Below are positions 1 to 38,036 of a stretch of DNA of 64,000 nucleotides, one piece after another. The first letter of the stretch is position 1. Each line of letters starts with the position of its first letter. Source of the DNA: a virus (Duplodnaviria > Heunggongvirae > Uroviricota > Caudoviricetes); the IMG/VR virus record IMGVR_UViG_2648501802_000002, one strand, 5' to 3'. The notes below the pieces were generated by a model. That model made no database searches. It was not told the DNA's origin and worked only from the letters and a program-made list of their open reading frames with translations. The position numbers and the translations under genes are program-made.

Positions 1-1
1 C

Positions 2-259
2 ATGCTTATCGACCTGATGGCCGCGATGTCGCATAAGGACTGGCTGAGCCGTCGCCAACGGCAACAACAGGGAATTGAACGGGCTCATACGCTGGGTAAA
101 TACCGGGGATAACAGGCCGATCAGGAACGGCATCAGAAAGTCCTGTACTACTGGCAGGTCAAGAAACTAAGTATCCATGAAACGGCAGATGCGACAGGGT
201 ACAGTCCTTCACAGATATGCCGCATTCAAGCCCTTTATAGAGAGCCTGAATCGGAATAA
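2..259 (+). pseudogene. Serine recombinase (resolvase/invertase family) 3' fragment with in-frame TAA stop at 110-112; 5' end outside window
   Basis: Frame 2 reads MLIDLMAAMSHKDWLSRRQRQQQGIERAHTLGKYRG-stop-QADQERHQKVLYYWQVKKLSIHETADATGYSPSQICRI: E-helix-like segment followed by a C-terminal HTH, as in serine recombinases, interrupted by an in-frame TAA. Confidence 0.45.
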
Positions 260-365
260 AAAGTAGCCCAGGCGTTAATGGATTACCTTTCCAGGCTAAG
301 CTCATTGCTCCTGTCAGATACGCAGCCCTGCCTGTAATAATACAGACTGGGCAATGTGTTGCCAC

Positions 366-695
366 TCAGGCTGACAACTGTCGGAGGATATCCGCTGTAT
401 TATAATGAGCCCGTTTTTCTATATATTTCCCGTCTTTCAGAGTGATCATAAACATCAGAGAAAAGCGCACTTTCCTGCCGCTGGCAGGATGCCCAAGGAA
501 TTCACGGGTCTGCACGCCTTCAAAGATAAGATAGCAGGCGACTTTATCGTCTCTGGCAAAGATTTCGTGGATACGCATTGTAAATCCCGGAAAAGCATCC
601 ATATGGCCTTTTTCCTGTACGATAAACTGCTCACTGTTCAGCGGTGTATCCACCTGAGAATAGAATTTAAAATCCGGATGGCAGAGGTTTTTCAC
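366..695 (-). CDS. SnoaL-like / ester cyclase family protein
   Basis: 109-aa ORF; small alpha+beta fold protein resembling ester cyclase / NTF2-like family; first gene of a three-gene minus-strand cluster. Confidence 0.55.
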   Translation of the reverse strand: MKNLCHPDFKFYSQVDTPLNSEQFIVQEKGHMDAFPGFTMRIHEIFARDDKVACYLIFEGVQTREFLGHPASGRKVRFSLMFMITLKDGKYIEKRAHYNTADILRQLSA

Positions 696-775
696 CTCAT
701 CATATTTATTTTCTTCAATCAGACGATAAAACTTTTTAACCGTTTTGATATTTTCTTAAACAGACATATTGCACC

Positions 776-1765
776 TCATTTTTCAGTTTCTTTACCTGCC
801 GGAATATTGCCTTCCGGCGTTCCGTTAAATGTTTTTCGCCATTCACTGGGACTGACTCCCATCCGCTGCCGGAATATCTGCCGGAAAGTAATGGTGGACT
901 GAAAGCCTGCCAGTTCGGCAACCCGCTCCACTGCAATATCTGTACTTTCCAGCAGTTCCTGACTCCGCCGGAGACGCTCTGTGGTGATCCACTCCCAGAC
1001 CGTCATTCCTGTGGCCGAATGAAAATGGCGTGTAAGCGTTCTTCGGCTCATGGAGGCTAAATGGGCCAGAGTGTCAATATCATGTGGTAATCCCAGATTT
1101 GCGGACAGGTATTCCAGCAGCTGGTTTATGCGGTTATCGGACGTACTTTTGGGAATAAGCAGTTGCCGGTACTGTGCCTGTCCGCCTTCCCGGTAAGGAG
1201 GAGCAACCATCCGGCGGGCTATTTGATTAGCCGTATATCTGCCCAGGCGTTGCCGGATCACATGGAGACAACAGTCCAGTGCTGCGGCTGTACCGGCTGA
1301 GGTGATAATCCGCTCGTCCTCAACATAAAGCACGTTCACGTCCAGATGAACCGCCGGGAAAAGCATCTGGAAATCCCGTTCAGCCTCCCAGTGCGTGGCC
1401 GCCCGTTTACCATCCAGCAGACCGGTGTAAGCCAGAACAAAACTCCCCAGGCACAGGCCCACCACCTGAGCTCCATTTTTCCAGGCTGCAACCAGGGCAC
1501 TGAGCAGAGTTTCAGAAGGCCTTTCATGGATGTGTTTCCAGAAAGGAATAATAACGATATCGGCCTCTGCCAGTGCATCAAGCCCGTATTCTGCCCTCAT
1601 CGCCGTACCTTCAGCAGACCAGATAAGCCCGGGCTCTTCCGCACATACCCGGCGGCTGAAGAGGGCCTTCCCTTCCAGTATCTCCCCGAACAGGATTAAT
1701 GGAACGGAGACATGAAATGTACTGAACCCTTCGGTGATCACTATAGCGACAGTGATGGTGGACAT
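776..1765 (-). CDS. GlxA-family transcriptional regulator (DJ-1/PfpI domain + AraC-type HTH)
   Basis: 329-aa ORF; N-terminal DJ-1/PfpI-like domain (VGLCLGSFVLAYTGLLDG) and C-terminal AraC HTH (RTLTRHFHSATGMTVWEWITTERLRRSQELL). Confidence 0.7.
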   Translation of the reverse strand: MSTITVAIVITEGFSTFHVSVPLILFGEILEGKALFSRRVCAEEPGLIWSAEGTAMRAEYGLDALAEADIVIIPFWKHIHERPSETLLSALVAAWKNGAQVVGLCLGSFVLAYTGLLDGKRAATHWEAERDFQMLFPAVHLDVNVLYVEDERIITSAGTAAALDCCLHVIRQRLGRYTANQIARRMVAPPYREGGQAQYRQLLIPKSTSDNRINQLLEYLSANLGLPHDIDTLAHLASMSRRTLTRHFHSATGMTVWEWITTERLRRSQELLESTDIAVERVAELAGFQSTITFRQIFRQRMGVSPSEWRKTFNGTPEGNIPAGKETEK

Positions 1766-1780
1766 GCCATGGCCTCCGGG

Positions 1781-2557
1781 TTAAATCGTAACTGATTCAC
1801 CATCAGCAGGAGCGACAACTGACGCCTGGATCTGGTTATCGCGGGCATATTCCAGCAGTTCCTGACGGGTCAGCAGACAGTGGTTTACGGCCTCCATGTG
1901 CGTTGCCACAATCAGTGCCTCTGGTACGATACGATGGGCTTTCAGGACATCTTCCCTGCCGAAAATAATGGGGCCGAATCCGAGAACATGCGCCCAGCCC
2001 GTATTCATAATAACGACGCCAGGATTGAACCGACGTAAATTATCCTCTACAGCCTTGATCCAGATGGTATCCCCAACCAGATAGAGCGTTTTTTCGGACG
2101 GATGCTGGAAGACCACCCCACAGGCATCCCCAAGAATTGCTGCGAGTTGCGGGTTAGCATAGGCTTCGTCCGAACCATGCTGACAAACGGTTTTAATAAG
2201 TGAAATTTCGCCAAATGTGCTTTTGTCAGACAGAATAACAAGGTTGCTGAAGCCCTGGGAACGCAGGATCTTTTCATCATGTTCATTCTGAACATAAATC
2301 AGTTTATCTTTCGGGATGTGCGCAACAGCCGCTTCATCCCAGTGGTCAGGGTGTGTGTGGGTGACAATAATGGCATCCACATCCAGCAGTACATCAAGGT
2401 CAAAAGGCAGCTCAGTCATCGGGATGCGGATATCTGACCGGGCCGTTCCTTCGAATCCCGGATAGGCTTCTTTTTTCGCAAGCATCGGATCGACAAGAAA
2501 TTTTTTACCAGCGTAAGAAATGAGTTGTGTGGCGTTACGTACCTGGATGATCTTCAT
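1781..2557 (-). CDS. MBL-fold metallo-hydrolase
   Basis: 258-aa ORF with metallo-beta-lactamase motif THTHPDHWD. Confidence 0.7.
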   Translation of the reverse strand: MKIIQVRNATQLISYAGKKFLVDPMLAKKEAYPGFEGTARSDIRIPMTELPFDLDVLLDVDAIIVTHTHPDHWDEAAVAHIPKDKLIYVQNEHDEKILRSQGFSNLVILSDKSTFGEISLIKTVCQHGSDEAYANPQLAAILGDACGVVFQHPSEKTLYLVGDTIWIKAVEDNLRRFNPGVVIMNTGWAHVLGFGPIIFGREDVLKAHRIVPEALIVATHMEAVNHCLLTRQELLEYARDNQIQASVVAPADGESVTI

Positions 2558-2772
2558 TTTAGCAAGTCCTGTATTGGTTAATAACCATCAGAGCCATATC
2601 ATGATGGCCTAATGTGATAATTATGATTAAATCAGGCCTGCCTGCCACTGAAATAATGCCATATTTGGATGATATCAGGCCATTCTTCTGGCTCTCAGGT
2701 TTCAGGAATATGTCTGCTGAAAGCGGGTACAGATCTGACGCATTGAAGGGAAGTATCGTCCTTTAAGGCTTA

Positions 2773-3162
2773 TTGATGTCAGCCAGTACAAAAAATCATC
2801 TTAACGTACAATATCTTCCGTTTCCCAAACGGAGCCCACCAACGACGGAGGAACGGCGCATCGCCAATGCTCTTGGCGCTCTCCCCTGCATTGCCTGCTA
2901 TATGCCTGGAGTAATATCTAATGAGGTGTCTCTGAACCATATCGCCGGTCGTACCGCGCCGGGTTGTCACAAAAAGCAATTGCCACTTTGTAGATGGCAC
3001 CACCAGCATGCAGCACCGGCTGAAGTAAGAGAAAAATACCCCTGGCTGGTCCCTGTTCATGCCGATGGTGTGGTTGGAGGCAAGAAAGAATTCACCTTGC
3101 TGAACAAGTCAGAGATGGAGTTGCTGGCTGACGCCTATGAAATGGCAAACGTCATGCACTAA
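2773..3162 (+). CDS. ref: Ref-like recombination enhancement function protein (HNH-type endonuclease), P1 ref-like
   Basis: 129-aa ORF with Cys/His-rich HNH-like motif (CIACYMPG...NHIAGR...CHKKQLPLCRWHH) typical of P1 Ref family. Confidence 0.55.
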   Translation: MMSASTKNHLNVQYLPFPKRSPPTTEERRIANALGALPCIACYMPGVISNEVSLNHIAGRTAPGCHKKQLPLCRWHHQHAAPAEVREKYPWLVPVHADGVVGGKKEFTLLNKSEMELLADAYEMANVMH

Positions 3163-3351
3163 TAAATATATTATTTTTAATCTTAAATGATTGACAACTG
3201 ACAAGTGACTTGAGTCAGAATCATCACACGCCCGGTACGGATGGATCCCTTTTCAAATATTCCATGGACGGCACAGTCTGAGTACCGGGCGCTACCTTCT
3301 GTTGTATTGCTAAGCCGCCGCTGGTGGCTTTTCTTTTTTATAGGGGGCGAT

Positions 3352-3996
3352 ATGGATAAGAAAATATGCGTTGTTTCGATGAGCGTCGGTAAACCGGCGT
3401 CAATGACTGCTGCATGGATCAACAACGAGCTGATAATGGCTGAGCGGACCAGCTACCCTGAACGCCGCCGCGATATGGAACTCCAGCTGCTGCGCGAATT
3501 GCGAGAAAAAGAGGAAAAGGGTTTTATCGTGCTGGTGGAAGAGGAAAACAGCTTTATTACCGGTCGAGTTGGCCAGCGTGTAAGGTTGCGCGATCCCTTC
3601 ATGAACGGCAGGCCGGTACTAATTGAAGCAATGCAGATTTACAAGGAGCTGGAACGCCAGAAAGCGATCAAGTTACCGCGCAAGGAATCCGGCAAATACA
3701 TCCTCCACCAAAGCATCTTCGATTCCGAACACGATAAAAAAGGCGATGAGTTTTTCAACATCAACTGGAGCGAAATAACGACAGAGCATGTTCTGACGTT
3801 GTTATGCTGCTTCGCAACAGAATACAACAACGTGGTAAGCGCAGACTACATCAGGACAATGACAGACACCGTTACTAAACAAGACAACGAATATTCACCA
3901 TATGAGCCATTTGTAAATATGATAAAAGCATTTTATCGGATGGAGCTCGCTAAAGTTCCTCAAGGTAAATTAACAGGTAAGGATAACATCTTTTAA
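3352..3996 (+). CDS. Hypothetical phage protein (at the position P1 mat would occupy)
   Basis: Start moved to internal ATG (MDKKICV...) preceded by AGGGGG ribosome-binding site; no recognisable domain. Confidence 0.4.
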   Translation: MDKKICVVSMSVGKPASMTAAWINNELIMAERTSYPERRRDMELQLLRELREKEEKGFIVLVEEENSFITGRVGQRVRLRDPFMNGRPVLIEAMQIYKELERQKAIKLPRKESGKYILHQSIFDSEHDKKGDEFFNINWSEITTEHVLTLLCCFATEYNNVVSADYIRTMTDTVTKQDNEYSPYEPFVNMIKAFYRMELAKVPQGKLTGKDNIF

Positions 3997-4049
3997 GCAC
4001 AGTAATGAGGTGCTTAGATGTTAATATCAATATCCTAACTCTCTGCATC

Positions 4050-4739
4050 TCATAAATCTGATAGCCACTTACTATCTATGGACTCAATCTCCGTCAGCGG
4101 AATTGATGGGAAAAAATATCCCTGAGCGCCCCATAGCCCTATTCCTTTTGATAACTTATGACAATCAATGTTTTCGACGCCTTCAGCGATGATATTCGGA
4201 CATAACTTTTTTAAATTGCTAATAATGACATCAAAATGAGGCTTAATCATATGCTCTTGAAAAAATGACTTATCAAGTTTTATTGCATGGTATTTATTTT
4301 TAATTAATGCTTTCATGGTGGCGTTACCACTTCCAAAATCATCAAGCCAAACATAGTCTGTCAAAGTCAGGAGAAAGGGTATAACGTAATCCTCATCGCT
4401 TAAATCAGGGTAGTTTTCTGATATCTCAAGAACTATAAATTTATTGTTTTTAATTAACTCTTGAGTTTGTTTATTACTGTATATATATATACATGTATCA
4501 TAATCTACATTAATAGAACATAGTATATTATGGCGTTCAAAAAAACACTTGTATTTCATTATTGTGTTAAGTTGTGATTTAAGTAAATTAATCTTCATCT
4601 TATTGGTAAACATACCCAATACTCTTTGAGTAGGAAGAGCGACACCATCTTTGGAGCGAAATCTGCTTAACACTTCTACTGCAATCAACTTGTTCGTGCT
4701 CGTAGAAATGATTGGTTCTGCAATGTAGATAACTTCCAT
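4050..4739 (-). CDS. YdiV-like degenerate EAL-domain protein (AT-rich cargo)
   Basis: 229-aa ORF; aligns by eye to E. coli YdiV blocks (FIVLEISENYPDL vs FIELLINENYPHL; DDFGSGNATMKAL...KLDKSFFQE vs GNLGAGNSTMKAV...MLDKSFIQQ); very AT-rich relative to neighbours. Confidence 0.6.
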   Translation of the reverse strand: MEVIYIAEPIISTSTNKLIAVEVLSRFRSKDGVALPTQRVLGMFTNKMKINLLKSQLNTIMKYKCFFERHNILCSINVDYDTCIYIYSNKQTQELIKNNKFIVLEISENYPDLSDEDYVIPFLLTLTDYVWLDDFGSGNATMKALIKNKYHAIKLDKSFFQEHMIKPHFDVIISNLKKLCPNIIAEGVENIDCHKLSKGIGLWGAQGYFFPSIPLTEIESIDSKWLSDL

Positions 4740-4975
4740 ATCCCCACCCTCAAGTTTTAAATTGCTTGATTTTGCTCAGATAACGAGCCCCCTATATTTA
4801 CAAGAGTTACACTCTACTTTTGTAGATTAAATGTCAATTTATTTGTTTGTGATAATATTGAAAAATATCAATTAAAACAATCAAAAAATGTGACATAAAT
4901 CAATAATTTTATTTTTACACAACTTCTTGATTTCTGAGCCTAGCTATCTCTATTCTTATTCAAAGCCTCTTTAGA

Positions 4976-5710
4976 ATGGTGGTGGCCATGTCAGCAGTTT
5001 GTTACTTCATACTCATAAAGAAACCTATAAGCTTTCAATTTCTTAAGGATTTCTTAATATTAAATTATGGTGATGTGTTGTTGCTTAAGCATTCTGAGCA
5101 TGAATGCTTAAAAATCTATTCAGACAAATATATAGAATTCGAACTCAATGATAATACCGTAAGAAACTATTTATCATGCAACAACAACCATGGAAACCAA
5201 TCGCTGGATAAGTGTCCGCATTTGCTAAAAAAGTCTTTTGCCTATCCTGATTTATTAATCAGGATGATCGATAATATAAGCGATCAAAATCATATCCATT
5301 CTGATTTTAGGGAGGCAGTAACTTTTTCATTACTCTCAATTTTTAATGATGTTGATAACTTTAGAGCATTTCTTACGTCTGGTATGCCCACTTTCTCAGG
5401 GAAAGTGCGCAGCATATTTCTTTCAGATGTATCTAAACACTGGAAACTAAGAGACCTAACCGATTATCTCTACATGAGTGAAAGCTTAATAAAGAAAAAA
5501 CTATTATTGGAAAACACCTCCTTCAGTAAGTTATTACTTGATACACGGATGGCTTTTGCTATTAAATTACTAAAGCAAAATCATCCAGTCAAACAAGTAT
5601 CAGAAAGCTGTGGCTTTAGTAGTACATCGTACTTTGTGTGCCTGTTCAGGCAATATTATAATTGCACGCCACGTGAATATGCAAAACATCAATTATTATC
5701 TGGAAAATAA
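4976..5710 (+). CDS. AraC/XylS-family transcriptional regulator (GadX/AppY-like), AT-rich cargo
   Basis: 244-aa ORF; C-terminal AraC HTH (SESLIKKKLLLENTSFSKLLLDTRM...SSTSYFVCLFRQYYNCTPREY) close to GadX/AppY pattern; divergent from the EAL gene across an AT-rich intergenic region. Confidence 0.65.
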   Translation: MVVAMSAVCYFILIKKPISFQFLKDFLILNYGDVLLLKHSEHECLKIYSDKYIEFELNDNTVRNYLSCNNNHGNQSLDKCPHLLKKSFAYPDLLIRMIDNISDQNHIHSDFREAVTFSLLSIFNDVDNFRAFLTSGMPTFSGKVRSIFLSDVSKHWKLRDLTDYLYMSESLIKKKLLLENTSFSKLLLDTRMAFAIKLLKQNHPVKQVSESCGFSSTSYFVCLFRQYYNCTPREYAKHQLLSGK

Positions 5711-5748
5711 GATGCATTTATCTCCCAGATAATATTGTAATATTAAAC

Positions 5749-5997
5749 TCAGTCAGCATTTAGTAGCAGAGCATTATCTATGATGATCTGCTCCCATTCT
5801 TCGAATGCCCGGTCACGGACGCCCTGGGGAACACTGTTTGTTTTGAAATCAACGACTGTCCGCCATTTCCCGTCCGGACGGTACATGCGCAGAGCTTTAC
5901 TTCCCCCTTCCCTACGCACCTCAACGTTATGCTTGTCAGCAAACTCTTGTAATGCTCGTAGCGTCCCATGCTTTACTGTGTAGTATCGCTTTTTCAA
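5749..5997 (-). CDS. lxc: Small phage protein, lxc-like by position
   Basis: 82-aa ORF immediately downstream of the next ORF and two genes from darB, as lxc is in P1 by my recollection of gene order; no motif-level confirmation. Confidence 0.3.
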   Translation of the reverse strand: MKKRYYTVKHGTLRALQEFADKHNVEVRREGGSKALRMYRPDGKWRTVVDFKTNSVPQGVRDRAFEEWEQIIIDNALLLNAD

Positions 5998-6434
5998 GTT
6001 TTCTCTCCAGCCTGTGCCAAGGCTTCAACTTCCAAATCGTAAGACTCAAACTCATAGTCCTGGTCGTCAACTTCTTCAGGCACTGGCAGTAAATGCCAGG
6101 CTGAGTATATCTGACCATTATCAAAACGCTCCTGGCTGTAGAGCGTCGCAGCTATGAGCGTCAGCGCCGGGCGGTCATAACGGTAAATTTTGCGAACGTC
6201 ACGGTCAACGAGACGACCGAAATTACCATAACCGCGCTCCAGTAATAATTTTTTAATTTCCGGCCAGTATGGGCCATAGCTGCGGTACAGGCGGGGATTT
6301 TTCAGTAATCGCCCGCGTAGCCCTGACAGGAAGAAATCAACGTATTCGTCTTCTGTCTTTCCTAACAACGCTGTACGGAGTACCGCCTCAAGATATGTTT
6401 TATTCGGTTTTATTGTATCAGATAGTGTGGCCAT
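5994..6434 (-). CDS. ulx: Hypothetical phage protein, ulx-like by position
   Basis: 146-aa ORF directly downstream of the darB-like gene on the same strand with 4-nt overlap to the next ORF. Confidence 0.3.
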   Translation of the reverse strand: MATLSDTIKPNKTYLEAVLRTALLGKTEDEYVDFFLSGLRGRLLKNPRLYRSYGPYWPEIKKLLLERGYGNFGRLVDRDVRKIYRYDRPALTLIAATLYSQERFDNGQIYSAWHLLPVPEEVDDQDYEFESYDLEVEALAQAGEKT

Positions 6435-6467
6435 ATTATGCGACGCCCGGCGAACCGGGCGCTCCTG

Positions 6468-9110
6468 TTATGCGTATTGTTGGATGACGGCCAGAACGTC
6501 CGCCACGTTGTGTTTTGTCTCGATAATCCACCAGTTACCCGGGAAATCGCTGTTCTTCGCCTTCGCTGGCAGCCAGCGAGCGCCGAATTTCGCCTTGATT
6601 GCGTCTTTCGCACGGAAAAGAACGCCTTTCATGCCTGAGGCTTCCTGAAGCCCAAATACCTCGCCAGCGGCGAATTTTGGTGCGTACATCATCTTCAGGT
6701 CGGCGGTGGATACGCGATAATTCAGACCTAGAGACTGAGCTATGCTGGTGGCATCACCCTGTATTGATGATAACTCTTCTTGTTTCTCGTTTCTGGCGGC
6801 AATCTCTTCCTCCGTGATGTTGCCAAGGGCCAGGTTTATCCGATCAGCGTCGGCCTGTTTCTCTTCATCGGTGCGCCCGGCAAGAACCGTGTTAATTCTC
6901 TGCAATATCTCCACATGATTCTTGCGCATGCTGAGCAATTCCGGCGTAACCTCGTTAAGATCCACCAGCCCAAGGATGGCAAGGTCGGAAAACATTGATA
7001 CCAGGTTGTAGGTCATGCGATAGCTGAGTTGACCATAGGCTGATGGCAACTTCACCGCATCCATTTGATAGGCATCCATAAATTTAGAGCCGTCGTTTAC
7101 GACATCCGCTATTGCAGGTGTGATTTTCCCTGTGGTGGCGGCCTCCCTGATTGCTGTTACCCACGATTGAGTCAGCGCGGCGACTGCATGATTCAGATTG
7201 GCTTCCCGTTCTGCTGCGATGCGCGCGCTTGCTGCGTCCATTGCCTGCTTGATCTCGGCTTTATTGCTGTAAATGCCAATGGTGCCAAACTGTGCTGTGG
7301 TGATCTCATAATCTGACGCCCGGAACTCATTGGTACCGAAAATGGCATTGGTGACTTCAAGTTCAGAATCCCCGTTACGAGTAGCCCCCTGGCTTGTTTT
7401 TTCCGGCATTCTGGCGATCGCATCCGCTATTTTCTCCTGAATTGCTTCAGGGGATAGCGTATCTCCGTATGACGCGATTACATCGCCATAATTGGAGCCA
7501 AACAATTCAACCAGGAATGTTTCTGCCGAACGGATCTGGCGGTTATTCCCTTCCGACATCATACCAAGCACCCATTTTGCAATTGACGACTTCAGCGCGA
7601 CGTCACGGCGATCCGGGTAAACCGCATGCTTCAGTGGGTCCGTATAGGTACCAACAAAATCAATGCTATAGCCTGACTCTGTAGTCTGAACGCCGTATGA
7701 GTCAGTGATTTTGATCATGCCGCGCTGCTGGAAACGGTAGAAATCGTCACAGGAAATGATGTCGTTAATCCCGGCGATGGAGACGCCGCCACTGATTTTC
7801 TGCATAACAGCATCTTCATCGGGAGTTACATCAACCTGTTTATCCAGCGTCTTCACATCCCAGTTACCCGATTTGGTACCTTTGAAGGTAAAGATAATCT
7901 CCACGTCTGCGCGCAGGCTGTCGAAGTCCAGCGACTTAATGCGAACGATATCACCGGCACAATCGTAGTATTGGCCTACACGCCATGAGCGATCGCCGAT
8001 AATAAGGAACTCACTCGCATGGTTAACCAGGTCAGGATCAACATCCAGAATGCCTTTATTTATTGCATCCTCCACCAGCGGGCGCAGGCGTTTGATATCC
8101 GTCGCGGCCTTCTGAGTACGGTTCAATAATTTCTCATAGCGGGAGATGGCTTGAGAGATATTAGCCTTGCGCTGAATGGCGCTTTTCAACGACGCGCGAT
8201 ACTGTGCTAACAACGTACGGTCTGTGTGATGGACGCTACCCCAGCGGGCTTTCCAGTCTGCGTTATCAGCTGCTTTGGCCATTACCGCCTGTTTGAATTT
8301 GGCGACGTCGGCGGTGGTCTTTTCAAGTTCCGCTTTGCTTCGCTCTAATTCAGCGGTAAGCACCTCCACATCCTCACCAGCTGCGTGCTGCGCCTTGATG
8401 TAGTTCTGAAGGTCGATAGTAGCCTGTTCTTTCTGGCGAGCGCGTTGCGCGGCTTTCGCCTTATCCATTTGAACCTGCATCATTGCCAGACGTTCGCCAT
8501 CATCCTTAGCGGTATACATCTGCATTTCGATCATATCGTTGGCGTCGGCGTTCTCCATTTCTGACTTATCTGAACGGAGGATATCGGAGATCCAACCTGC
8601 TTTACGCTTCAGCGTCTTCAGTCGGTATTCATCGAAAGAACCCTTGCCGCAGTAGTAGTGAACGCGAACGCTTGCACGGTTGGAACCAACTCGGGCACCG
8701 CGACCGTTACGCTGTGCGATACTGGCTGGTGTCCATGGCAACGTCAGATGATGGATGTCAGTCGTTCCTCGATGCAGGTTGATACCCACCTCTGCCTTTT
8801 TGTTGCAGATGATGATCGGAGTCCGGCCCTCCTGGAAGTCGGCTGCAATCTTTTCCAGACCGCCCAACGACATTTCATTTTGCTGCGCGATATAGGCGTC
8901 ATACAGAGCTATTTGCTCGTTGTATTTCGCTATCTGTGCATCTGTTGGTTCATCCGGTAACTCTTTCGGCGGTTTAACCGCTTTCAGTTTCTTACCGGTT
9001 TTACCTGCCTCGGCAACCGTCTGAGCATTCAGGATCCCCACCTTTGAAGGTTCAAGGTTAAGAGCATTGCAGATAATGCGCTTGAGCTTCTGGTGTTGCG
9101 TTTTTTTCAT
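6468..9110 (-). CDS. darB: DarB-like protein, C-terminal piece: helicase C-terminal domain and long tail
   Basis: 880-aa ORF with helicase motif VI-like segment (HHLTLPWTPASIAQRNGRGARVG); contiguous with the two upstream pieces if two single-base indels are corrected. Confidence 0.6.
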   Translation of the reverse strand: MKKTQHQKLKRIICNALNLEPSKVGILNAQTVAEAGKTGKKLKAVKPPKELPDEPTDAQIAKYNEQIALYDAYIAQQNEMSLGGLEKIAADFQEGRTPIIICNKKAEVGINLHRGTTDIHHLTLPWTPASIAQRNGRGARVGSNRASVRVHYYCGKGSFDEYRLKTLKRKAGWISDILRSDKSEMENADANDMIEMQMYTAKDDGERLAMMQVQMDKAKAAQRARQKEQATIDLQNYIKAQHAAGEDVEVLTAELERSKAELEKTTADVAKFKQAVMAKAADNADWKARWGSVHHTDRTLLAQYRASLKSAIQRKANISQAISRYEKLLNRTQKAATDIKRLRPLVEDAINKGILDVDPDLVNHASEFLIIGDRSWRVGQYYDCAGDIVRIKSLDFDSLRADVEIIFTFKGTKSGNWDVKTLDKQVDVTPDEDAVMQKISGGVSIAGINDIISCDDFYRFQQRGMIKITDSYGVQTTESGYSIDFVGTYTDPLKHAVYPDRRDVALKSSIAKWVLGMMSEGNNRQIRSAETFLVELFGSNYGDVIASYGDTLSPEAIQEKIADAIARMPEKTSQGATRNGDSELEVTNAIFGTNEFRASDYEITTAQFGTIGIYSNKAEIKQAMDAASARIAAEREANLNHAVAALTQSWVTAIREAATTGKITPAIADVVNDGSKFMDAYQMDAVKLPSAYGQLSYRMTYNLVSMFSDLAILGLVDLNEVTPELLSMRKNHVEILQRINTVLAGRTDEEKQADADRINLALGNITEEEIAARNEKQEELSSIQGDATSIAQSLGLNYRVSTADLKMMYAPKFAAGEVFGLQEASGMKGVLFRAKDAIKAKFGARWLPAKAKNSDFPGNWWIIETKHNVADVLAVIQQYA

Positions 9111-9657
9111 CGGTGAAGATGATTTGCTTACCTTCTGGGAAAAACTCCTTCAGCGTGGCAATCAGCTTCGCGTATTTGGGCGTAACGGGGTGAGTTACGG
9201 TCTGTTCGTCAATGCCAAACTTGGCCAGGCGCTTATTCACTTCCTGCTCAAATGCTTCCGGTACCTGCAACTGAATAAACTCGCCCTTATCTATCAGGGA
9301 GTATTGCGATTGCTGCGTGATTGAATCATCACTGTCGTCGTCTTCGCTGGTGGCTTGTTTGGGCAAACTGTCCGCCAGCTGCTGCACCGCATCGGCGTAC
9401 TCCGGCAGGAAACGATAGGTGATCCGGCGATAGTACAGGTCCATGTCAGTACATACGCGGTCCATATCCCTGATTATTGAGAAGATCGGACGGGCTTTCT
9501 CGTGCTCAATCACGCCGTCTTCATTGACCGAGGTCATTACGCCATTGTTGGCTTTGGCCGCCGCTTCCGCCTGCTGACGCAATTCTTCATACGCCGCCAG
9601 TTGTTCTTCAGTAAGTGGTGCATCCTGCTGGTGTTCGTCCAGCTCCGGGATCTCCAC
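9058..9657 (-). CDS. darB: DarB-like protein, middle piece (linker into helicase C-terminal domain)
   Basis: 199-aa ORF; open frame extends upstream to about 9738; ends ...KQIIFTDEK at a T7/A7 run (9101-9107) where the frame switches into the downstream piece. Confidence 0.45.
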   Translation of the reverse strand: MEIPELDEHQQDAPLTEEQLAAYEELRQQAEAAAKANNGVMTSVNEDGVIEHEKARPIFSIIRDMDRVCTDMDLYYRRITYRFLPEYADAVQQLADSLPKQATSEDDDSDDSITQQSQYSLIDKGEFIQLQVPEAFEQEVNKRLAKFGIDEQTVTHPVTPKYAKLIATLKEFFPEGKQIIFTDEKNATPEAQAHYLQCS

Positions 9658-9721
9658 GGTATCCTTAACGTCTTCCGCCGTTTTAAGCGTTACCCAGCGA
9701 TGGAATATACCGCGCAGCGCA

Positions 9722-11287
9722 TCAACCCGACAATTTCGCTATAGGACCGCGACCAGGATTACCAAAGCGGTCAATCTCTGCCTGCAAACGGGATACCAGA
9801 GAAAGGCGCTGCTGTTCGATTTGTTCAGCACTATGCCCGGCGGCCTTCATATCCTGATATTCAATTAACATCCGGCCAATCATCGCCCCGCGATACAAGC
9901 GTTCACGGTATTTTTCAGGCTGGCTGTTAATCCAGTCCACCAGCTGCACCATATCGTCGCTGATTGATGTGGTGTACTTATCGCGGACATTTGCCATCTG
10001 GGTAAATGTCATGCCGAGACGGCCTTCTGTTGTAGTCAGGTTACGCTGAAGAGCCTCCCAGCTATCCGCGCCATAACTGGCAGCATCGATCTTAAGTTCC
10101 TTCCCGGCATCAGCTTCAATCCAGCGACCACCAGCATATTTTTGCCATACGCCATTAATCAGGCGCATTTCCCCTTCACCAACAACGTCTGCGGTCGGTG
10201 ACGGTTCAGCCATATCGAGCAAAGACCAGTCGATACGGCTTTCGAAACGATGAATCAGCTTCGCTTTAAGAGCCTGGTTATCAATCTGACCGTCGGCACG
10301 AACCTCAATACGCCCCTGGAAGCCCTTTTCCTGGGTGCCATGAACAAACCGGCGGCCATCCTTTTCAAACCACTTGCCAGAAATAAACGTTGGCCAAAGC
10401 ACATTTGCCGATTCAAGAGTGCTTTCATCCACCAGGGGGATTTTCTCAGCCATCTCTGCCGGATGTTTGCGCATCAGCACCACATCAACGACTGTACTGG
10501 TCCCGTTTGCGTCAAAAGTACCGGTAGGCAAGCGGTGAGCGCCAAGAAATTCAGCTTTACGGGATAAGCGCAGGCGTAACCGCTTCATGTTTGAACCTGA
10601 AACAATGGACGGCGGCACAATCACGCACATGAATCCGCCTGGCTTTATCTTGTCCAGCATGCGGAGCATGAAGTAAGAACCCATGTCCGTTTCTTCTGCG
10701 TAAGGCTTATCGATGTTGCGTGTGTTATCACGACCGCCGAACGGAACGTTACCCACAACATGGTCGAATGAATCGTTAGGCGTGCTTATAGCCAGCTGTT
10801 CGAACGGGGAAATCTGTACGCTGTCTTCCGGGTGTAACAACTGGTTTATACGACCGGAAACACTGCTGATCTCAGTCGCGGTCATCACCGTACCAACCGG
10901 TTTTGTCTCATTAAAAACGCCGGTTCCCGCCGATGGTTCCAGAGTGTTACCTACGTCCGCGCCGTAGAGCTTCATGATCTCCCAGACACCTTCAGCGATC
11001 GGCTTTGGTGTGTAATATTCGGAGACGGACCCGCCAATGCCGCCTTCACCGGTGTACCCAGCCAGGATCTGGCGCTGTTCATCTGTCAGTGTCGCGCCGT
11101 CCACCAGCGAATTAAGCAAATCTATCGCCTTCTGATTCGCCTCCCGGCGCAGTCGGTCATAGCTTTTGCCTTCCACCTTTTCCACGCCGTATTTAATCGG
11201 CGCTCGGTGAGATGTTATTGCCCTAATGTATTTCAATATTTCGCTGACACTTGAACAGCAAAACACCCCCATAAATAGCTTGTTCAT
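9722..11287 (-). CDS. darB: DarB-like protein, N-terminal piece: N6-adenine DNA methyltransferase domain
   Basis: 521-aa ORF with amino-MTase motifs (YYTPKPIAEGVWEIM; VVGNVPFGG); reading frame continues into the next piece after a 1-nt shift near 9722-9738. Confidence 0.6.
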   Translation of the reverse strand: MNKLFMGVFCCSSVSEILKYIRAITSHRAPIKYGVEKVEGKSYDRLRREANQKAIDLLNSLVDGATLTDEQRQILAGYTGEGGIGGSVSEYYTPKPIAEGVWEIMKLYGADVGNTLEPSAGTGVFNETKPVGTVMTATEISSVSGRINQLLHPEDSVQISPFEQLAISTPNDSFDHVVGNVPFGGRDNTRNIDKPYAEETDMGSYFMLRMLDKIKPGGFMCVIVPPSIVSGSNMKRLRLRLSRKAEFLGAHRLPTGTFDANGTSTVVDVVLMRKHPAEMAEKIPLVDESTLESANVLWPTFISGKWFEKDGRRFVHGTQEKGFQGRIEVRADGQIDNQALKAKLIHRFESRIDWSLLDMAEPSPTADVVGEGEMRLINGVWQKYAGGRWIEADAGKELKIDAASYGADSWEALQRNLTTTEGRLGMTFTQMANVRDKYTTSISDDMVQLVDWINSQPEKYRERLYRGAMIGRMLIEYQDMKAAGHSAEQIEQQRLSLVSRLQAEIDRFGNPGRGPIAKLSG

Positions 11288-11353
11288 TGGTAATCCTTAA
11301 CAAGTGACTAGTGTTAAATTCCGTTCAAACACGATGCGAATTATTCTAATTAA

Positions 11354-13084
<1,731 letters not shown>

Positions 13085-14340
13085 ACGGCAAACATTCCCA
13101 ATTCACAGAGTCCGACCTAAACCACATGAAGCGGCTTAGGAATTACAGACTCTCCAAGGGCTAACACTGCCAGCCCGGCAGCTTTTATATTACGGGCCGC
13201 GTTAATATCACGATCATGCTCTGCGCCACATTCCGGGCAGTGCCATTTACGAATATTAAGAGGCATTTTTTGCATGGTGAAGCCGCAACTGCTGCAACGT
13301 TTGGAAGAAGGGAAATACTGGTCGATAGCGACAATGCTACGTCCACCCCATTCTCCTTTGTACTGGAGTTGGCGTACAAGTTCGCTCCAGCCTGCGTCAG
13401 CTATTGCTTTAGACAGCTTCGGGTTACGGATCATGTTTTTCACTTTAAGGGATTCGACGCAAACAACTTGGTTTTCGTTAATCAGTTTGCGGGACAACTT
13501 ATGCAGGTTATCCATCCGACAATCGACTATTCTCGCGTGGAGGCGGGCAACCTTTAAACGTGCTTTGGCGCGGTTCTTTGAGCCTTTTTGTTTCTTGCTC
13601 AATCTGCGCTGTAACACTGCTAATCGCTTCGCGTATTTAGCGTTGTGTCGAGGATTGCCAGTTTTAAAACCGGTATCGGTGACGAACAAATCTTTTAAAC
13701 CAATATCAATGCCGACCGTGGAAACGGTGATCGGCAGTGATACAGGCTCAAACTCGCAGAGACAGGATACAAAATATCGTCCGGCAGCATCCCTGGTGAT
13801 AGTGACAGTGGATGGAGCAGACGGCAACGGACGGCTCCAGCGAACATCTAACGGCTCTTTGCTCTTTGCCATGTACAGCTTGCCGTCACGGTATTTAAAT
13901 GCGCTGGCAGTTAGTTCTGCGGCCTGTTTATGCCGCTTGCTCTTAAAAACTGGGTATGCAGCACGCCCGGCGAAAAAGTTAGCAAAAGCCGTTTGTTGGT
14001 GGCGCAGAGACTGCTGGAGGGGGACGCAGGAAACGTCATTCAGCCAAGCGAATTCTGGTTCTTTTTTCAGTGCCGTTAATTTGGCGCTGGCTTGTGCATA
14101 GCCGACCCTCTCATGGCGTGCGTAGTACGCATCGGTGCGCCAGCGAAGGAGGCTGTTATAGACAAAACGCACACACCCAAAAGTCCGGGCTAATAGCTCG
14201 GTTTGTTCGGGAGTTGGATAGAATCGATATTTATAGGCACGCTTCATGTTCTATATAATACATTGAAACTAATGAGTATATAAATGAATACACGGACGAA
14301 AATGTTATCAAAGCCAATATACCAACAGACATTAGGTAAG
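13085..14340 (-). mobile_element. IS200/IS605-family insertion sequence (tnpB-only, IS1341-like); ends approximate
   Basis: Single TnpB ORF without tnpA, inserted between the prt-like and pro-like genes; element boundaries not mapped, taken as the flanking intergenic space. Confidence 0.4.
13117..14247 (-). CDS. tnpB: TnpB (IS200/IS605 OrfB) RuvC-like RNA-guided endonuclease
   Basis: 376-aa ORF; N-terminus MKRAYKYRFYPTPEQ typical of OrfB; C-terminal zinc finger CSSCGF...CPECGAEHDRDINAARNI. Confidence 0.8.
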   Translation of the reverse strand: MKRAYKYRFYPTPEQTELLARTFGCVRFVYNSLLRWRTDAYYARHERVGYAQASAKLTALKKEPEFAWLNDVSCVPLQQSLRHQQTAFANFFAGRAAYPVFKSKRHKQAAELTASAFKYRDGKLYMAKSKEPLDVRWSRPLPSAPSTVTITRDAAGRYFVSCLCEFEPVSLPITVSTVGIDIGLKDLFVTDTGFKTGNPRHNAKYAKRLAVLQRRLSKKQKGSKNRAKARLKVARLHARIVDCRMDNLHKLSRKLINENQVVCVESLKVKNMIRNPKLSKAIADAGWSELVRQLQYKGEWGGRSIVAIDQYFPSSKRCSSCGFTMQKMPLNIRKWHCPECGAEHDRDINAARNIKAAGLAVLALGESVIPKPLHVV

Positions 14341-14359
14341 GTAGCTGGAGGGCAATATA

Positions 14360-17077: not shown

Positions 17078-17755
17078 ATGAATAACATGACAACGAAAGA
17101 GCTTTTGACGGCACTTCCAAAATACAAAAGCCATAAAACAGTTCGTGCCTCAAAAATCAAAGATATCGAAATTATCGCCCTAATGGATGTGGTCCTTCTT
17201 TGCAACATCGAAGTCGTTGAGCCAGAAGGGGTAAAAGTCCATGTTGATAAAATGTTTTTGCAAAAACACCGACCAGAAATTGGCGGATATCTGGTCGCTT
17301 ACGAGGACGGATCTCTGTCCTATTCACCAGAAAAAACATTTGAAGAAGGCTTTAGTCGGACTAACGACTTCTTCGAAAATGGGGTATCGCTCAGCATTGA
17401 AGGTCACAACGGGGTGACATTCATTACAGCCAAGGACGTAACTATTTCTGCTGGCGGTATCGCTACTCTACAAGAAGAAATCGACCTTGAAGCAGCCGAC
17501 TTTTCTGACGCGCTGATGTGGCTGAAGGATGGCAAGAAAGTTGCTCGACGCGGGTGGAACGGCGAAAACCAATTCTGCTGGCTGGTTCCTGAAGGACAGT
17601 ACCCGGCACGAATGGAAGCCATTAAGGGATATTTCCCCGGCGACCTCGTTCCGTATGGTGCTTATTTCGCCTTAAAAAATGCACAAGGTGTAGTTGTTCC
17701 GTGGGTTCCTTCTGTAGGCGACTTACTGGCATGTGACTGGTTTGTAGTGGAGTGA
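17078..17755 (+). CDS. Two-domain phage protein with C-terminal DUF2829-like (Tad2-like) domain
   Basis: Start at ATG 17078 with AGAGGAAAG ribosome-binding site; C-terminal segment FSDALMWLKDGKKVARRGWNG...VVVPWVPSVGDLLACDWFVV fits the DUF2829 pattern as I remember it. Confidence 0.5.
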   Translation: MNNMTTKELLTALPKYKSHKTVRASKIKDIEIIALMDVVLLCNIEVVEPEGVKVHVDKMFLQKHRPEIGGYLVAYEDGSLSYSPEKTFEEGFSRTNDFFENGVSLSIEGHNGVTFITAKDVTISAGGIATLQEEIDLEAADFSDALMWLKDGKKVARRGWNGENQFCWLVPEGQYPARMEAIKGYFPGDLVPYGAYFALKNAQGVVVPWVPSVGDLLACDWFVVE

Positions 17756-17761
17756 TTTAAC

Positions 17762-18550
17762 GTGGAAAATACTAAAGCAATTCAATACCGCCTGCGTAAT
17801 GGCCAGAGTGTCGAAGTGACCATCAATAATGATGGTGTACCTGGCGAAAAGGTTTCTATCTCTGATCTGGCTATCGAAAAAACCATCATGTGCCACCTTG
17901 GCTTTACTGAAGAAGTGAGCAAAAAGCATGGTGTAGCTATCTGGCGAACAATGGATACTGGCATGCGCAGATTCATTACCGCTCGTACCCCAGGTATGAC
18001 CATGATGGACCTCATGCAGATTGCGCCGCTGTTTGAGTGTGAACCTTTGGATGTATTCAGCAATCCAGCTATCTGCCAGCAGTTATATGGTGAGATGAAA
18101 CTCGCGGTTACCCCCATTGTGCTGCATGAAGGATCGCTTGCTGGCGTATGGAAAGTAGAGCGAATTTCAAGCTATATGCCCTTCCACATCCATGTCAACG
18201 GCGTAATCGCAGGTGAAAATCAACCTGTTTCAGTTACAAAGTCAGACCTCAAGCGCGCAATTCTTGAAGCAAGTTGTCGAGTTATCGGCCTGGGCAAACA
18301 GTCTTATGTTTTCTTCCCGGCTGGCCCTGAAGGCCCGGCAGAAATTCTGATTATGGATGCCGATCTGCTCTGGCAAATACAGTTTCTGATTGGCAAAAGC
18401 ATCATCCGCGCTGAAGAACTCGATCAGTACATTACCTGCACGATGACGGATGAAGTCAAAAGTGTGGCTATAGCCAATGCCCGGAACCTATGTCGTGCTG
18501 CATTAACAGAACTGCAAGAAAACACCACGGAAGAAGTGGAAAGCGATTAA
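17762..18550 (+). CDS. Hypothetical protein (cargo, co-oriented with DUF2829 gene)
   Basis: 262-aa ORF starting 7 nt after the previous stop; no recognisable motif. Confidence 0.4.
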   Translation: MENTKAIQYRLRNGQSVEVTINNDGVPGEKVSISDLAIEKTIMCHLGFTEEVSKKHGVAIWRTMDTGMRRFITARTPGMTMMDLMQIAPLFECEPLDVFSNPAICQQLYGEMKLAVTPIVLHEGSLAGVWKVERISSYMPFHIHVNGVIAGENQPVSVTKSDLKRAILEASCRVIGLGKQSYVFFPAGPEGPAEILIMDADLLWQIQFLIGKSIIRAEELDQYITCTMTDEVKSVAIANARNLCRAALTELQENTTEEVESD

Positions 18551-25518: not shown

Positions 25519-25590
25519 AAGTTCCCTCCTACGTTGTCAGGAGGTAATGGTATGCAAAGTAACTTCTCAACCGGTCATGTTACTTGACAT

Positions 25591-25616
25591 CCTCCACGTC
25601 CTTTAGAGCGTGGAGG
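25591..25616. other. 8-bp perfect inverted repeat hairpin immediately 5' of the intron-like element
   Basis: CCTCCACG-(10 nt loop)-CGTGGAGG, 4 nt upstream of the GTGCG start at 25621. Confidence 0.4.
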
Positions 25617-25620
25617 ATGT

Positions 25621-26460
25621 GTGCGCCCAGCATGGGCGCGATCTTGGAGGTGAAAGCCCTCCCGCGAGCTGACCACAGCGAGCGAAAGGAAGTGCAACTG
25701 CGTGAGGGCGGCTAGGCGTGGGGAGGAAGCACGGAATGAACCCGTGAGCCGATGAACAAGAATCGGATATGAGGCGCGATGGAGCAAGGCGAGCAGGCAC
25801 ATCACTGCGAAGCTTTCGTGACAAAGTCGCGTAGATCCGACGGTTGTGCGGGGAAGGATCGCGTTCTTACCTGGGGAGTTCTCGCCTCATGCCTGAAAGG
25901 GCAACGTCGTAAGACGGAGCGAGAAGTCAGCAGAGGCCGTAGTAGTCAGGACTCCGACGAAGGGCCGAACGAGAAGGAAAGCCAAAAGATATGACTCTTG
26001 ACAGGACATTGCGTCAGAAGCCGGGGAAGCCCGGTACGGACCCGCATGCCGGGTGGTGTGGCAGGGGCGCAGCCTTGTGCTCCCCCCTATGCCGATCAAG
26101 CAGAACATTGTGCTGGGCCTCTGACGCATCTCCTTGATGGTCTTGGCATCGTGCTTAAGTGGATTGGTGTCGTCTCTGATAGGCTCATGGAGGCAGAATG
26201 AAACTCAAAAATCCGGGACAGCACGCAAAACAGGCTGCACAAAAAGCGCAGGTTGCGTAGGAGTGGAATCCCGCTCCCAAAAAATGGTGCAGAAGTTGCG
26301 GCAGTGGTCATCCGACGCACTGGAAAATAACAAACCCGCCGTGACCAGAATCGGAGGCCTGAGGGAGTGACCGTAAAACCGGATAACCCAGGCAGCAAAT
26401 ACCCGCTGGATGAGGCATGGTTCCGGCAGATAATACCGAAAACCGCCAGACACACTGGAT
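25621..26460 (+). mobile_element. Group II intron 5' fragment (domains I-III-like RNA, no intact maturase ORF); 3' boundary approximate
   Basis: Starts GTGCGCCCAGCATGGGCG (compare Ll.LtrB GTGCGCCCAGATAGGGTG); shares motifs GCGAAAG, AATCGG, GTCGC and CGTAGTAGTC...GAAGGG with LtrB domains I-III; GNRA-rich; only short ORFs on either strand. Confidence 0.5.
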
Positions 26461-26516
26461 AATCAGTAGAAATAACCCATTAAAATCATTATAATAATTG
26501 GGCACATTATTATATT

Positions 26517-27080
26517 ATGCTGAATAATAGAGACATGAATATTAATGAACTTAAAGACTGTATTCACTATGAAGTAATCGGTAGCGAGCGTCCTTTCTCC
26601 TGGCGAAAGGCAATTGTTCGCGCAATAAAACATAGAAGAGTTCGTTATTTATTTTGGTGGCGCATAGCCAAATACCTTTTTGATAAAGGCGGATACTGTC
26701 GGAAGATTGCGGGGAAAATGGAACGTTTCATTCTTGATAAATATAGTGTAACAGTCCCTTTAACTGTAAATATAGGGAAAGGCTTTGATATTTCTTATCT
26801 CAACGGTGTTGTTATCGGTCACAAAGTAACCATTGGTGAAAATTGTTCAATAAAACCAGGGGTAACTATTGGGCTACGTGGTGATTTTAATGATATGGAT
26901 ATTGTTATAGGACATAATGTGACCATTGGTTGTAATGCCACCATTCTTGGTGGCAAAGTGCGTATAGGAAACAATGTCACAATAGGTGCTCATGCATTGG
27001 TATTGCATGATATTCCTGATGATTCAACATTCATCACTAAATTTCAGTCTGAAGTTATCTGCTCGTCCTCTTGCACATAA
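26517..27080 (+). CDS. Hexapeptide-repeat (left-handed beta-helix) acetyltransferase, AT-rich cargo
   Basis: 187-aa ORF with tandem hexapeptide repeats ([23 protein letters not shown]...[34 protein letters not shown]); 3' end overlaps the convergent tfa stop by 37 nt. Confidence 0.7.
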
Positions 27081-27661
27081 CCCTGATTCATCAGCTCTGG
27101 CCATACGATATCCGGAGCTGTACTGGTGTCAATTCGACTCACTAATACTCTGTATTTTCTCCAGGAATCCAGTTGTGAATTTTCCTCGGTTGTTGCTATT
27201 TCAAGATTAACTGCATCCTGCAGAATTGCGATGTTATCTGTTGCCTCCTGAATCAACCTTGCCTTTTTCTCTTCCGCTTCCCGTATCCGAAACAGTTTTT
27301 CTGCTTCCTCATCCTTCACCCAGGATACGCCGTCCCACTTCTGATACTCCCCTGCTGGCGACAACCAGGTGACATTCTCTGGTAACGGTCCGAGTTCAGA
27401 AATAAACAACGCGTCCCCCGATGCCACGTCATAGACCGTTTTACCACGATGGTCTTCAACAATAATCCATGATTCATTTTCACTGTTAAAAACTGCCACA
27501 AAGCCAGCAGGAATTTCCGGTGGGGCGATATCTGTAGAATTAGCTGGTAGCCCTGTATGAGGTGGAATATATGCGTCACCTTCACCAATAAACTCATTAG
27601 TTCCGGCGAGCAGGTTATAAATTTTTACAGTACGTGATTGTTCACTCATTCTGAATGCCAT
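27044..27661 (-). CDS. tfa: Tail fibre assembly protein (lambda Tfa-like) with altered C-terminal tail
   Basis: 205-aa ORF; [60 protein letters not shown]... nearly matches lambda Tfa; last about 16 residues differ. Confidence 0.8.
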
Positions 27662-28552: not shown

Positions 28553-28725
28553 ATTAATTCCTTACGCCCATTCCCGCAGCGGTTGTTCTAATTGAACTTC
28601 AAAACCATCAAACATTTGTTGTTTCAAACTGTTGTTTAAAATACGAACATTAACGAAGAAGCCATCATTTTTAATCACTGTTGGTTCTTCGTTCTCGCCG
28701 TTTGGTATTTCGGTATATGTAACAC

Positions 28726-37555: not shown

Positions 37556-38036
37556 TTAAATACGCGCTGCCGCCTGTGCGCTGTTAGCTGCATTCGTTTC
37601 TGAGGTTTTCGCCGCGTTCTTTCGATGATGCCGCTGCAGTTTCGGATTTCTTTGCCGCCGCTGCGCTCTGAGAGGCGGCTTCAGCGTTGCGTGCCGCTTC
37701 TTCCACCATTTCCTCAAAACGACGCAATGCCTCCGGCATGACATCATCTTCCGTCATGGCACCGAGAAAATCATTCAGCGTACCTGGTCTGGAACCTTCA
37801 TAGACGGTAATGGTCCCGGCATGTGAAGGCGGAAAACCTTCAACCAGCAGGGTGACGCTGTACTGACCATACTCAACATCCATGCTGTAACGCCCGGCTT
37901 CATCCGGATTTTCAGAGGCCACCGTGTTCACCAGTACCGTGGTGCTGTTACGCTTTGCCTTCAGTTGAATAGTGCAGTTCTGTATTGGTTTTCCCGCACC
38001 ATCTTTCAGCACACCTGAGATTTTTACTGCTGCCAT
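37556..38036 (-). pseudogene. stf: Side tail fibre stf, N-terminal fragment only, truncated and frameshifted
   Basis: MAAVKISGVLKDGAGKPIQNCTIQLKAKRNSTTVLVNTVASENPDEAGRYSMDVEYGQYSV... matches lambda Stf N-terminus; frame breaks after ...AAASSKE and an alternative frame ends ...KTSETNAANSAQAAARI-stop at 37556. Confidence 0.6.

Follow-up and report, generated by a model that had tools for sequence, protein, structure and literature searches.

Bacteriophage P1 carries its res and mod restriction-modification genes between mat and lxc, and the P1-like part of the virus record IMGVR_UViG_2648501802_000002 raises the question of what may stand there instead and what it could do for phage and host. 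In the 64,000 nucleotides analysed from this record (hereafter the window), the place is taken by a divergent pair of genes, one encoding a stand-alone EAL-domain protein and the other an AraC/XylS-type regulator. The reading that we favour, with confidence somewhat above even, is that the pair is horizontally mobile, AT-rich regulatory cargo, one common alternative content of the mat-lxc hot spot, and that it combines an active cyclic di-GMP (c-di-GMP) phosphodiesterase with a YdeO/GadW/AppY-like AraC regulator in a case of lysogenic conversion.

Position and composition of the module

Alignment to P1 (NC_005856) matched window positions 2831–3861 to P1 2306–3336 and positions 5753–9725 to P1 9754–13725. 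Since P1 homology breaks at 3861/3862 and returns at 5753, the intervening 3862–5752 (1,891 bp) occupies the res-mod place, standing where P1 has 3337–9753 with res and mod::IS5. The features of this region are as follows.

3241–3996, plus strand: mat-like gene, 251 residues (phrog_1837, 1.3e-104)
3862–5752, no strand: AT-rich variable module in the mat-lxc (res-mod, RD-1) slot, with the P1 homology break and the lowest GC content
4050–4739, minus strand: stand-alone EAL-domain protein, 229 residues (Pfam EAL), with a complete catalytic signature
4740–4987, no strand: divergent control region with weak sigma-70-like hexamers only
4988–5710, plus strand: AraC/XylS regulator, 240 residues (Pfam HTH_18 and HTH_AraC), with YdeO/GadW likeness
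5694–5734, no strand: terminator-like hairpin with 17-nt arms, overlapping the AraC stop codon
5749–6434, minus strand: lxc and ulx, the right-hand P1 backbone boundary, 98% identical to P1 from 9754

The module thus runs from a variant 3' end of mat through the EAL gene, the divergent promoter region and the AraC gene to the hairpin, and the genes around it encode Ref-like (RecA_dep_nuc), Mat-like, Lxc, Ulx and DarB-like proteins. The final ~45 codons of the mat-like gene (3862–3996) belong to the variable module and are unlike P1 mat. The hairpin lies between the convergent AraC and lxc genes and is kept in the E. albertii allele. The GC content of 3997–5748 is 0.326, compared with 0.484 for the whole window, and is the minimum among all 1,752-bp windows of the 64 kb. 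An earlier note on this DNA, made from the letters alone, had described a sharply AT-rich divergent pair of genes at the res-mod position between ref/mat-like and lxc/ulx/darB-like genes, and the annotation and the P1 alignment bear out the position, the composition, both open reading frames (ORFs) and the flanks. Searches of the whole window, by blastn with the res-mod segment of P1 and by tblastn with Res, brought to light no overlooked homologue of res or mod. A search around the module for transposition footprints in the form of flanking repeats returned just short repeats at chance level.

That the pair stands instead of res-mod holds for the window and for nearly all other carriers, in which the two are mutually exclusive, but three E. 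albertii plasmids have both: mat is followed in turn by EAL, AraC, 94 bp copied from the 3' end of lxc, res and mod. The pair and res-mod are therefore separable units and not strict alternatives. The 94-bp duplicate (4856–4949 of locus L020, from E. albertii pEA18_2, NZ_CP117639) lies between the AraC gene and res, so that res-mod is flanked by direct repeats of lxc sequence, and loss of res-mod across this repeat could yield the exact arrangement of the window. The same junction of partial lxc with res is also seen in other res-mod P1-like plasmids that are without the EAL-AraC pair.

Active site and fold of the EAL protein

The ATG of the EAL gene is immediately preceded by the Shine-Dalgarno sequence GAGGGTGGGG, and its product matches Pfam PF00563 over residues 4–210 with 65.6 bits (5.5e-18; gathering score 31.3 bits). 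Among solved structures, the closest to it in sequence are STM1697 (1.5e-29) and YdiV (6e-22), followed by YahA/PdeL (5e-9), and BLASTP against the K-12 proteins gave YdiV (27.6% identity, 88 bits), PdeH (26%, 77 bits) and PdeL (28%, 56 bits). The AlphaFold2 model, which was calculated from a 25-sequence family alignment, is a TIM barrel with a predicted local distance difference test (pLDDT) score of 92.4. It superimposes on YdiV with a template modelling (TM) score of 0.87 and a root-mean-square deviation (rmsd) of 2.0 Å, and on STM1697, taken as the chain in the STM1697-FlhD complex, with a TM score of 0.82; the match to YahA is poorer (TM 0.77, rmsd ~3.5 Å). The name YdiV-like, given in the earlier note, is fair for lineage and fold, because the best sequence matches and the best superposition are with YdiV and STM1697.

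The same note had also called the protein degenerate, and this part was rejected on residue-level alignment. The residues E22-V-L-S-R26, N77, E105/E108, D133/D134, K154, E186-G-V-E189 and Q206-G207 are all kept, with E141, R145, N200, E232, E235, D262, D263, K283, E319, E322 and Q339 as their alignment partners in PdeL, and both PdeL and PdeH match the catalytic residues position by position. At the matching sites YdiV has H, L, G-N, M and G-x-x-D, so that the R, the first E of ExxE, the DD, the K and the EGVE are lost. Across 25 family members with identity down to 24%, SfaY/PdeY included, residues E22, L24, E105, E108, D133, D134, F135, G136, K154, E186, G187, Q206 and G207 are invariant. 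SfaY/PdeY is cited as functional when overexpressed in V. cholerae (PMC5635171).

YdiV (RflP of E. coli and Salmonella) and STM1697 of Salmonella are likewise stand-alone, compact EAL folds of ~230 residues (PDB 3TLQ, 4ES4, 5HXG), and their loop 6 has the same form, GxGN(A/S)T. They share ~28% identity with the window protein and are without most catalytic residues (8 of 10 are lost in YdiV), whereas the window protein keeps all; neither YdiV nor STM1697 binds or cleaves c-di-GMP (PMC3510510, PMC5622320). PdeH (YhjH) is a stand-alone EAL protein too, and the full catalytic signature is shared with it and with the EAL domain of PdeL; identity to these two is 26–28%, the window protein is ~25 residues shorter, and its loop 6 and QP motif are unlike theirs. 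Judged from its sequence, this stand-alone member of the YdiV/STM1697 structural lineage most likely has c-di-GMP phosphodiesterase activity. This is the better reading because the catalytic residues are intact and invariant and the residues through which YdiV contacts FlhD, considered below, are not conserved.

The AraC regulator and the intergenic control region

The mechanical ORF of the AraC gene spans 4976–5710 on the plus strand (244 residues), but translation likely starts at 4988 (240 residues), because homologues begin at the second ATG (MSxVCYF) and GGTGG stands before it. The protein matches Pfam HTH_18 with 50.3 bits (cut-off 33.6) and HTH_AraC with 37.1 bits (cut-off 26.6), and is laid out as a small N-terminal β domain followed by a C-terminal double helix-turn-helix. 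The best curated profile is that of YdeO (NCBIfam PRK09940, 2e-44), which aligns residues 5–237 with profile positions 1–232 of 253; at 152 bits the score is below the equivalog cut-off of 348, and the protein falls under every equivalog cut-off. By BLASTP it matches YdeO (35% over residues 1–233) and GadW (34% over 1–234) along the full length, and AppY (40%) and GadX (37.5%) in the C-terminal half. Against PDB sequences the best matches are CsvR and Rns (~1e-20), then the GadX DNA-binding domain and ToxT. In the AlphaFold2 model (pLDDT 87.7), which Foldseek matched to Rns and CsvR at 1e-12, the GadX DNA-binding domain can be superimposed with an rmsd of 1.3 and a TMt of 0.90. The assignment of the regulator to the GadX/AppY type is thus borne out, with YdeO and GadW as the closest relatives by BLASTP and profile.

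YdeO, GadW, GadX and AppY belong to the same AraC subgroup as the window regulator, at 34–40% identity. AppY, carried by DLP12, and PatE, PsrA and PsrB of enterohaemorrhagic E. coli lie on AT-rich, horizontally acquired DNA, as does the window regulator. Regulators of this kind switch on acid resistance through gadE/hdeA and reduce motility or type III secretion (AppY, PMC10057817; PatE, PsrA and PsrB, PMC10877973), which supplies the precedent for prophage AraC regulators that alter acid resistance or motility. Of all these proteins, the window regulator alone has a divergent EAL gene as its partner. Rns, CsvR and ToxT, the best solved full-length matches by both sequence and fold, share its two-domain organisation with a small N-terminal domain; identity to them is ~22%, and no adhesin operon adjoins the window regulator.

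The EAL and AraC genes are separated by 236 bp, or by 248 bp with the AraC start at 4988. A block at 4889–4934 (GTGACATAAATCAATAA...CTTGATTTC) is kept in the alignment of all alleles, those of IncX1 and IncF plasmids included, while the rest of the spacer is kept among P1-type alleles and not with the IncX1 and IncF alleles. This block overlaps the sole plausible promoter candidate for the AraC gene, TTGATT-18-TATTCT (4927–4956). No strong sigma-70 promoter was detected in the spacer at the threshold of the tool, and a relaxed scan gave just candidates with 8 of 12 matching positions, as expected if the promoters are activator-dependent. The AppY motif, ATGSCWGM, is too short for an informative scan. 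No C1 operator was found in the module, and the whole window has just two operator-like sites, at 11217 and 16356; nothing therefore ties the module to the lytic programme, and it is expressible from the prophage.

Selection and allele diversity

Both genes are under purifying selection. Pairwise dN/dS (the ratio of nonsynonymous to synonymous substitution rates) is 0.09–0.2 for the EAL gene and 0.04–0.15 for the AraC gene, at dS values from 0.3 to more than 2, so that both can be regarded as real and selected genes. The synonymous divergence of the pair is far deeper than the 95–98% identity of the flanking P1 backbone would give.

The divergent pair, with a spacer of ~240–260 bp, also occurs at 68% (EAL) and 81% (AraC) amino acid identity in three settings other than P1: a conjugative IncX1 plasmid, where it adjoins topB-hha-hns; an IncFIC/IncK plasmid; and large plasmids, where it lies next to a chaperone-usher operon. 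The IncX1 and IncF copies have 71–74% nucleotide identity. An O111 plasmid carries an AraC gene at 99% identity together with an EAL gene at just 89.5%, and this mosaic allele points to recombination inside the module. More distant relatives (EAL 46–56% identity, AraC 59–68%) are found on large E. coli plasmids of the virulence type, where their neighbours are PapB/fimbrial, usher, K88-type fimbrial subunit or SPATE autotransporter genes, often with IS66 or IS110 near by. One of these relatives, P0015, has a degenerate or frameshifted C-terminus.

Distribution and earlier descriptions

At a coverage of at least 80%, megablast found the cassette in 127 PLSDB plasmids, which is ~19% of the ~670 that have the lxc-ulx backbone, and blastn found it in 164. 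P1-type res is present in 108 PLSDB plasmids, 72 of them from Escherichia or Salmonella. Complete E. coli genomes have the cassette in 124 of 5,426 cases, and 171 of its 175 places there are on plasmids, by which an origin as ordinary core-genome genes was rejected. A scan of IMG/VR returned six close relatives, all on contigs of P1 size, along with unrelated distant EAL proteins. The comparison across P1-like elements thus shows the pair to be a frequent mat-lxc allele that also occurs on non-phage plasmids.

Phage vB_EcoM-Ro157c2YLVW carries the cassette at 97.4% identity. It is also present, at 88% identity, in OP279344, the P1vir stock used in Argonaute studies and deposited as 'P1 isolate del res del mod'; the OP279344 cassette stands in the res-mod place and is 99.4–99.6% identical to that of pJIE250-3. 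The mat-lxc locus is therefore not the same in all laboratory lineages of P1.

The pair is a common and earlier noticed allele of a known hot spot, drawn from two well-known protein families. It was recorded as '2 orfs' by Venturini 2019 (PMC6906374), and res-mod is low-GC variable region 1 of P1-like elements in Zhang 2022 (PMC9603915); RD-1 of pJIE250-3 is the same locus with the same cassette, and window 1–9725 is 96.8% identical to pJIE250-3 2560–12269. A literature search on the function of the P1 cassette gave nothing beyond '2 orfs', and a preprint on Pantoea PdeS was set aside as dealing with a different protein. PHROGs already lists both proteins, as families of unknown function, and the NCBI annotations read 'EAL domain-containing' and 'helix-turn-helix domain-containing'. 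New with respect to PMC6906374 and PMC9603915 are the identity of the EAL protein, its intact active site, the distribution of the cassette and its presence on other replicon types.

Proposed role of the module

In the role that we propose, the EAL protein would hydrolyse c-di-GMP in the lysogen, and the lower c-di-GMP level would reduce the curli and cellulose matrix and relieve the YcgR brake on flagella. The AraC protein would most likely activate the module's own promoters, which are weak and AT-rich and, by analogy with the Psr- and Rns-type regulators, presumably silenced by H-NS; it would act through the intergenic block that all alleles keep. It may also cross-regulate the GAD acid-resistance or motility genes of the host, as do AppY, PatE and PsrA/B. 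Expression of the module from the prophage would then bring about lysogenic conversion of host behaviour.

Several observations weigh against this proposal. The closest solved relatives of the EAL protein are catalytically dead anti-FlhDC factors, and its loop 6, DDFGSGNAT, is like that of YdiV and STM1697 (GNST/GNAT) in place of the canonical DFG(T/A)GYSS. The N-terminal QP motif is EP, a family-wide change that includes SfaY. The best NCBIfam model, PRK11596 (the PdeH equivalog), gives 95.4 bits, half of its cut-off of 190. Frameshifts are present in the EAL gene of the closest phage record, vB_EcoM-Ro157c2YLVW, and in both genes on an eatA plasmid of enterotoxigenic E. coli, and IS5, IS3 and IS903B insertions disrupt the module in some plasmid copies. 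In the sole experiment on a relative (Madsen 2016, PMC5023117), overexpression of the IncX1 gene 'xeal' cut Congo-red binding, the one effect seen, and left motility and crystal-violet biofilm unaltered. This gene is a true homologue, with 67% identity to the window EAL protein over residues 93–226. In pOLA52 and pIS15_43, however, it is a 135-residue C-terminal remnant without E22, R26, N77, the EAL motif and the AraC partner, whereas the full-length IncX1 alleles have the same divergent AraC partner and adjoin hns-hha-topB; the loss of these residues explains why xeal was called degenerate.

Alternative explanations

The EAL protein could instead be an anti-FlhD4C2 factor of the YdiV/STM1697 type, one that binds FlhD in the lysogen and so stops the synthesis of flagella, with no part for catalysis. 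We regard this as unlikely, if the least so of the alternatives. Its sequence matches to STM1697 and YdiV stand far above that to YahA, the top fold matches are YdiV and the chain of the STM1697-FlhD complex, loop 6 GNAT is common to all three proteins, and a homologue is annotated ydiV in one phage record. The central STM1697 contacts F160, L172, L173 and K167 (PMC5622320) correspond to F159, V171, I172 and K166, so that the hydrophobic core of the interface is partly conservative, but the polar contacts are lost, with K175, H176 and Y180 replaced by S, N and L; F159 is not diagnostic of FlhD binding, because it belongs to the generic KxDxxF motif. The FlhD contacts of YdiV (PMC3510510) are not kept either, being changed as F155I, H175K, F181H, R183D (a charge reversal), A184V and Q188N, with E179 in a gap, and the anti-FlhDC role that the earlier note had drawn from likeness to YdiV is not borne out at these positions. 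Retention of every catalytic residue, invariant in the family, would in addition be unexpected of a purely binding protein. A dual role is slightly less likely again: an active enzyme of the YdiV/STM1697 lineage might also engage a host partner such as FlhD, as a phage-plasmid 'trigger' enzyme, and form, with the AraC protein, a switch by which phage receptors that are flagellar or depend on c-di-GMP (such as the NfrB/N4 glycan) are removed. If so, the EAL protein would be a living intermediate between enzymes and dead anti-FlhDC factors, and exclusion of superinfecting phages at the receptor level would replace restriction-modification in about a fifth of P1-like elements.

The pair could also be neutral DNA that hitch-hikes in a recombination hot spot, silenced by H-NS, decaying and useless to phage and host. 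Low GC content and variability are already known of the locus (PMC6906374, PMC9603915), the P1-like segment of the window is itself damaged, and the insertions and frameshifts described above, like the xeal remnants with essentially no phenotype, are what decay would leave. Set against these, dN/dS is 0.04–0.2 in both genes over deep synonymous divergence, the catalytic residues are invariant, the pair and its intergenic block are kept across unrelated replicons, and by far most of the copies listed are whole, with no interruption, so that we give this explanation little credence. Much the same low probability attaches to a displaced adhesin-control unit, a Rns-type fimbrial activator with an SfaY-like EAL partner that would coordinate adhesion and motility and have no cognate target in P1. 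Such an origin fits the solved full-length structures nearest to the regulator (CsvR and Rns), the related pairs or single genes that adjoin usher, K88-type, PapB or SPATE genes on virulence plasmids, and the membership of SfaY as a distant relative in the EAL family; it fits poorly with the pairs kept intact on IncX1 and in considerably more than a hundred P1-like elements, where no fimbrial operon is present, and with YdeO/GadW, not Rns, as the best full-length sequence match. Least probable of all is a defence or superinfection-exclusion module in place of restriction-modification, which would act by taking away phage receptors that are flagellar or depend on c-di-GMP, or by breaking down a cyclic-nucleotide immune signal. 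Its slot is the restriction-modification place beside the anti-restriction genes ulx and darB, and an effect of receptor-level exclusion is conceivable, given that the receptor glycan of E. coli phage N4 requires c-di-GMP through DgcJ-NfrB (PMC8669469, PMC8669472). A known defence system was rejected, as neither protein matched a PADLOC model (the EAL protein had only a chance-level 0.0089 and the AraC protein nothing), and the same pair lies on conjugative plasmids beside hns/hha or fimbrial genes and not in defence islands. EAL domains are specific for c-di-GMP, which is not known to be a CBASS-type signal in E. coli, and this too counts against the explanation.

Phage-plasmids of the P1 type occur widely in E. 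coli, Salmonella and E. albertii and spread resistance genes, and about one in five carries the pair instead of restriction-modification. If the EAL protein is active and the regulator is AppY/PatE/Psr-like, lysogeny would shift how the host forms biofilm and moves, and possibly how it resists acid, and results from some P1 stocks could hold a hidden variable. For c-di-GMP biology, the module offers a readily testable EAL protein of the YdiV lineage with a catalytic site under strong selection. Current views are not overturned by the regulatory-cargo reading, which extends the known theme of prophage-borne regulators of host behaviour.

Other features of the window

Upstream of a 5'-truncated ref gene, window positions 1–2830 hold cargo that is absent from P1, consisting of the following genes.

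366–695, minus strand: SnoaL-type ester cyclase
776–1765, minus strand: AraC regulator with a DJ-1/PfpI domain
1781–2557, minus strand: metallo-β-lactamase (MBL)-fold hydrolase

This segment has a counterpart in pJIE250-3 between c8 and mat (Venturini 2019, PMC6906374). To the right of the module, the darB-like gene (6468–11287) is broken into three ORFs of 880, 199 and 521 residues. It has a frame break near 9058–9110 and, relative to P1 and pJIE250-3, an internal deletion of 1,949 bp with its junction at 9725/9726, by which P1 13726–15674 is gone. Three stretches in the P1-like part, 13070–14347, 17082–17765 and 25579–28769, gave no megablast match to OP279344 or NC_005856 and roughly fit other variable regions already known in P1, namely the IS1/isa and cin/tail-fibre areas.

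P1 homology stops inside pmgB at 37565/37566, with junction microhomology of 2–3 nt, and this junction is either that of an integrated defective P1 remnant or that of an assembly chimera. The remainder, 37566–64000, comes from a Rac-type chromosomal lambdoid prophage, joined at the N-terminal part of its tail-fibre gene; among its genes are those for J, tape measure, tail tube, capsid, portal, terminase and a TET-associated glycosyltransferase, and trkG. It is 99.9% identical to the chromosome of E. coli FDAARGOS_1279.

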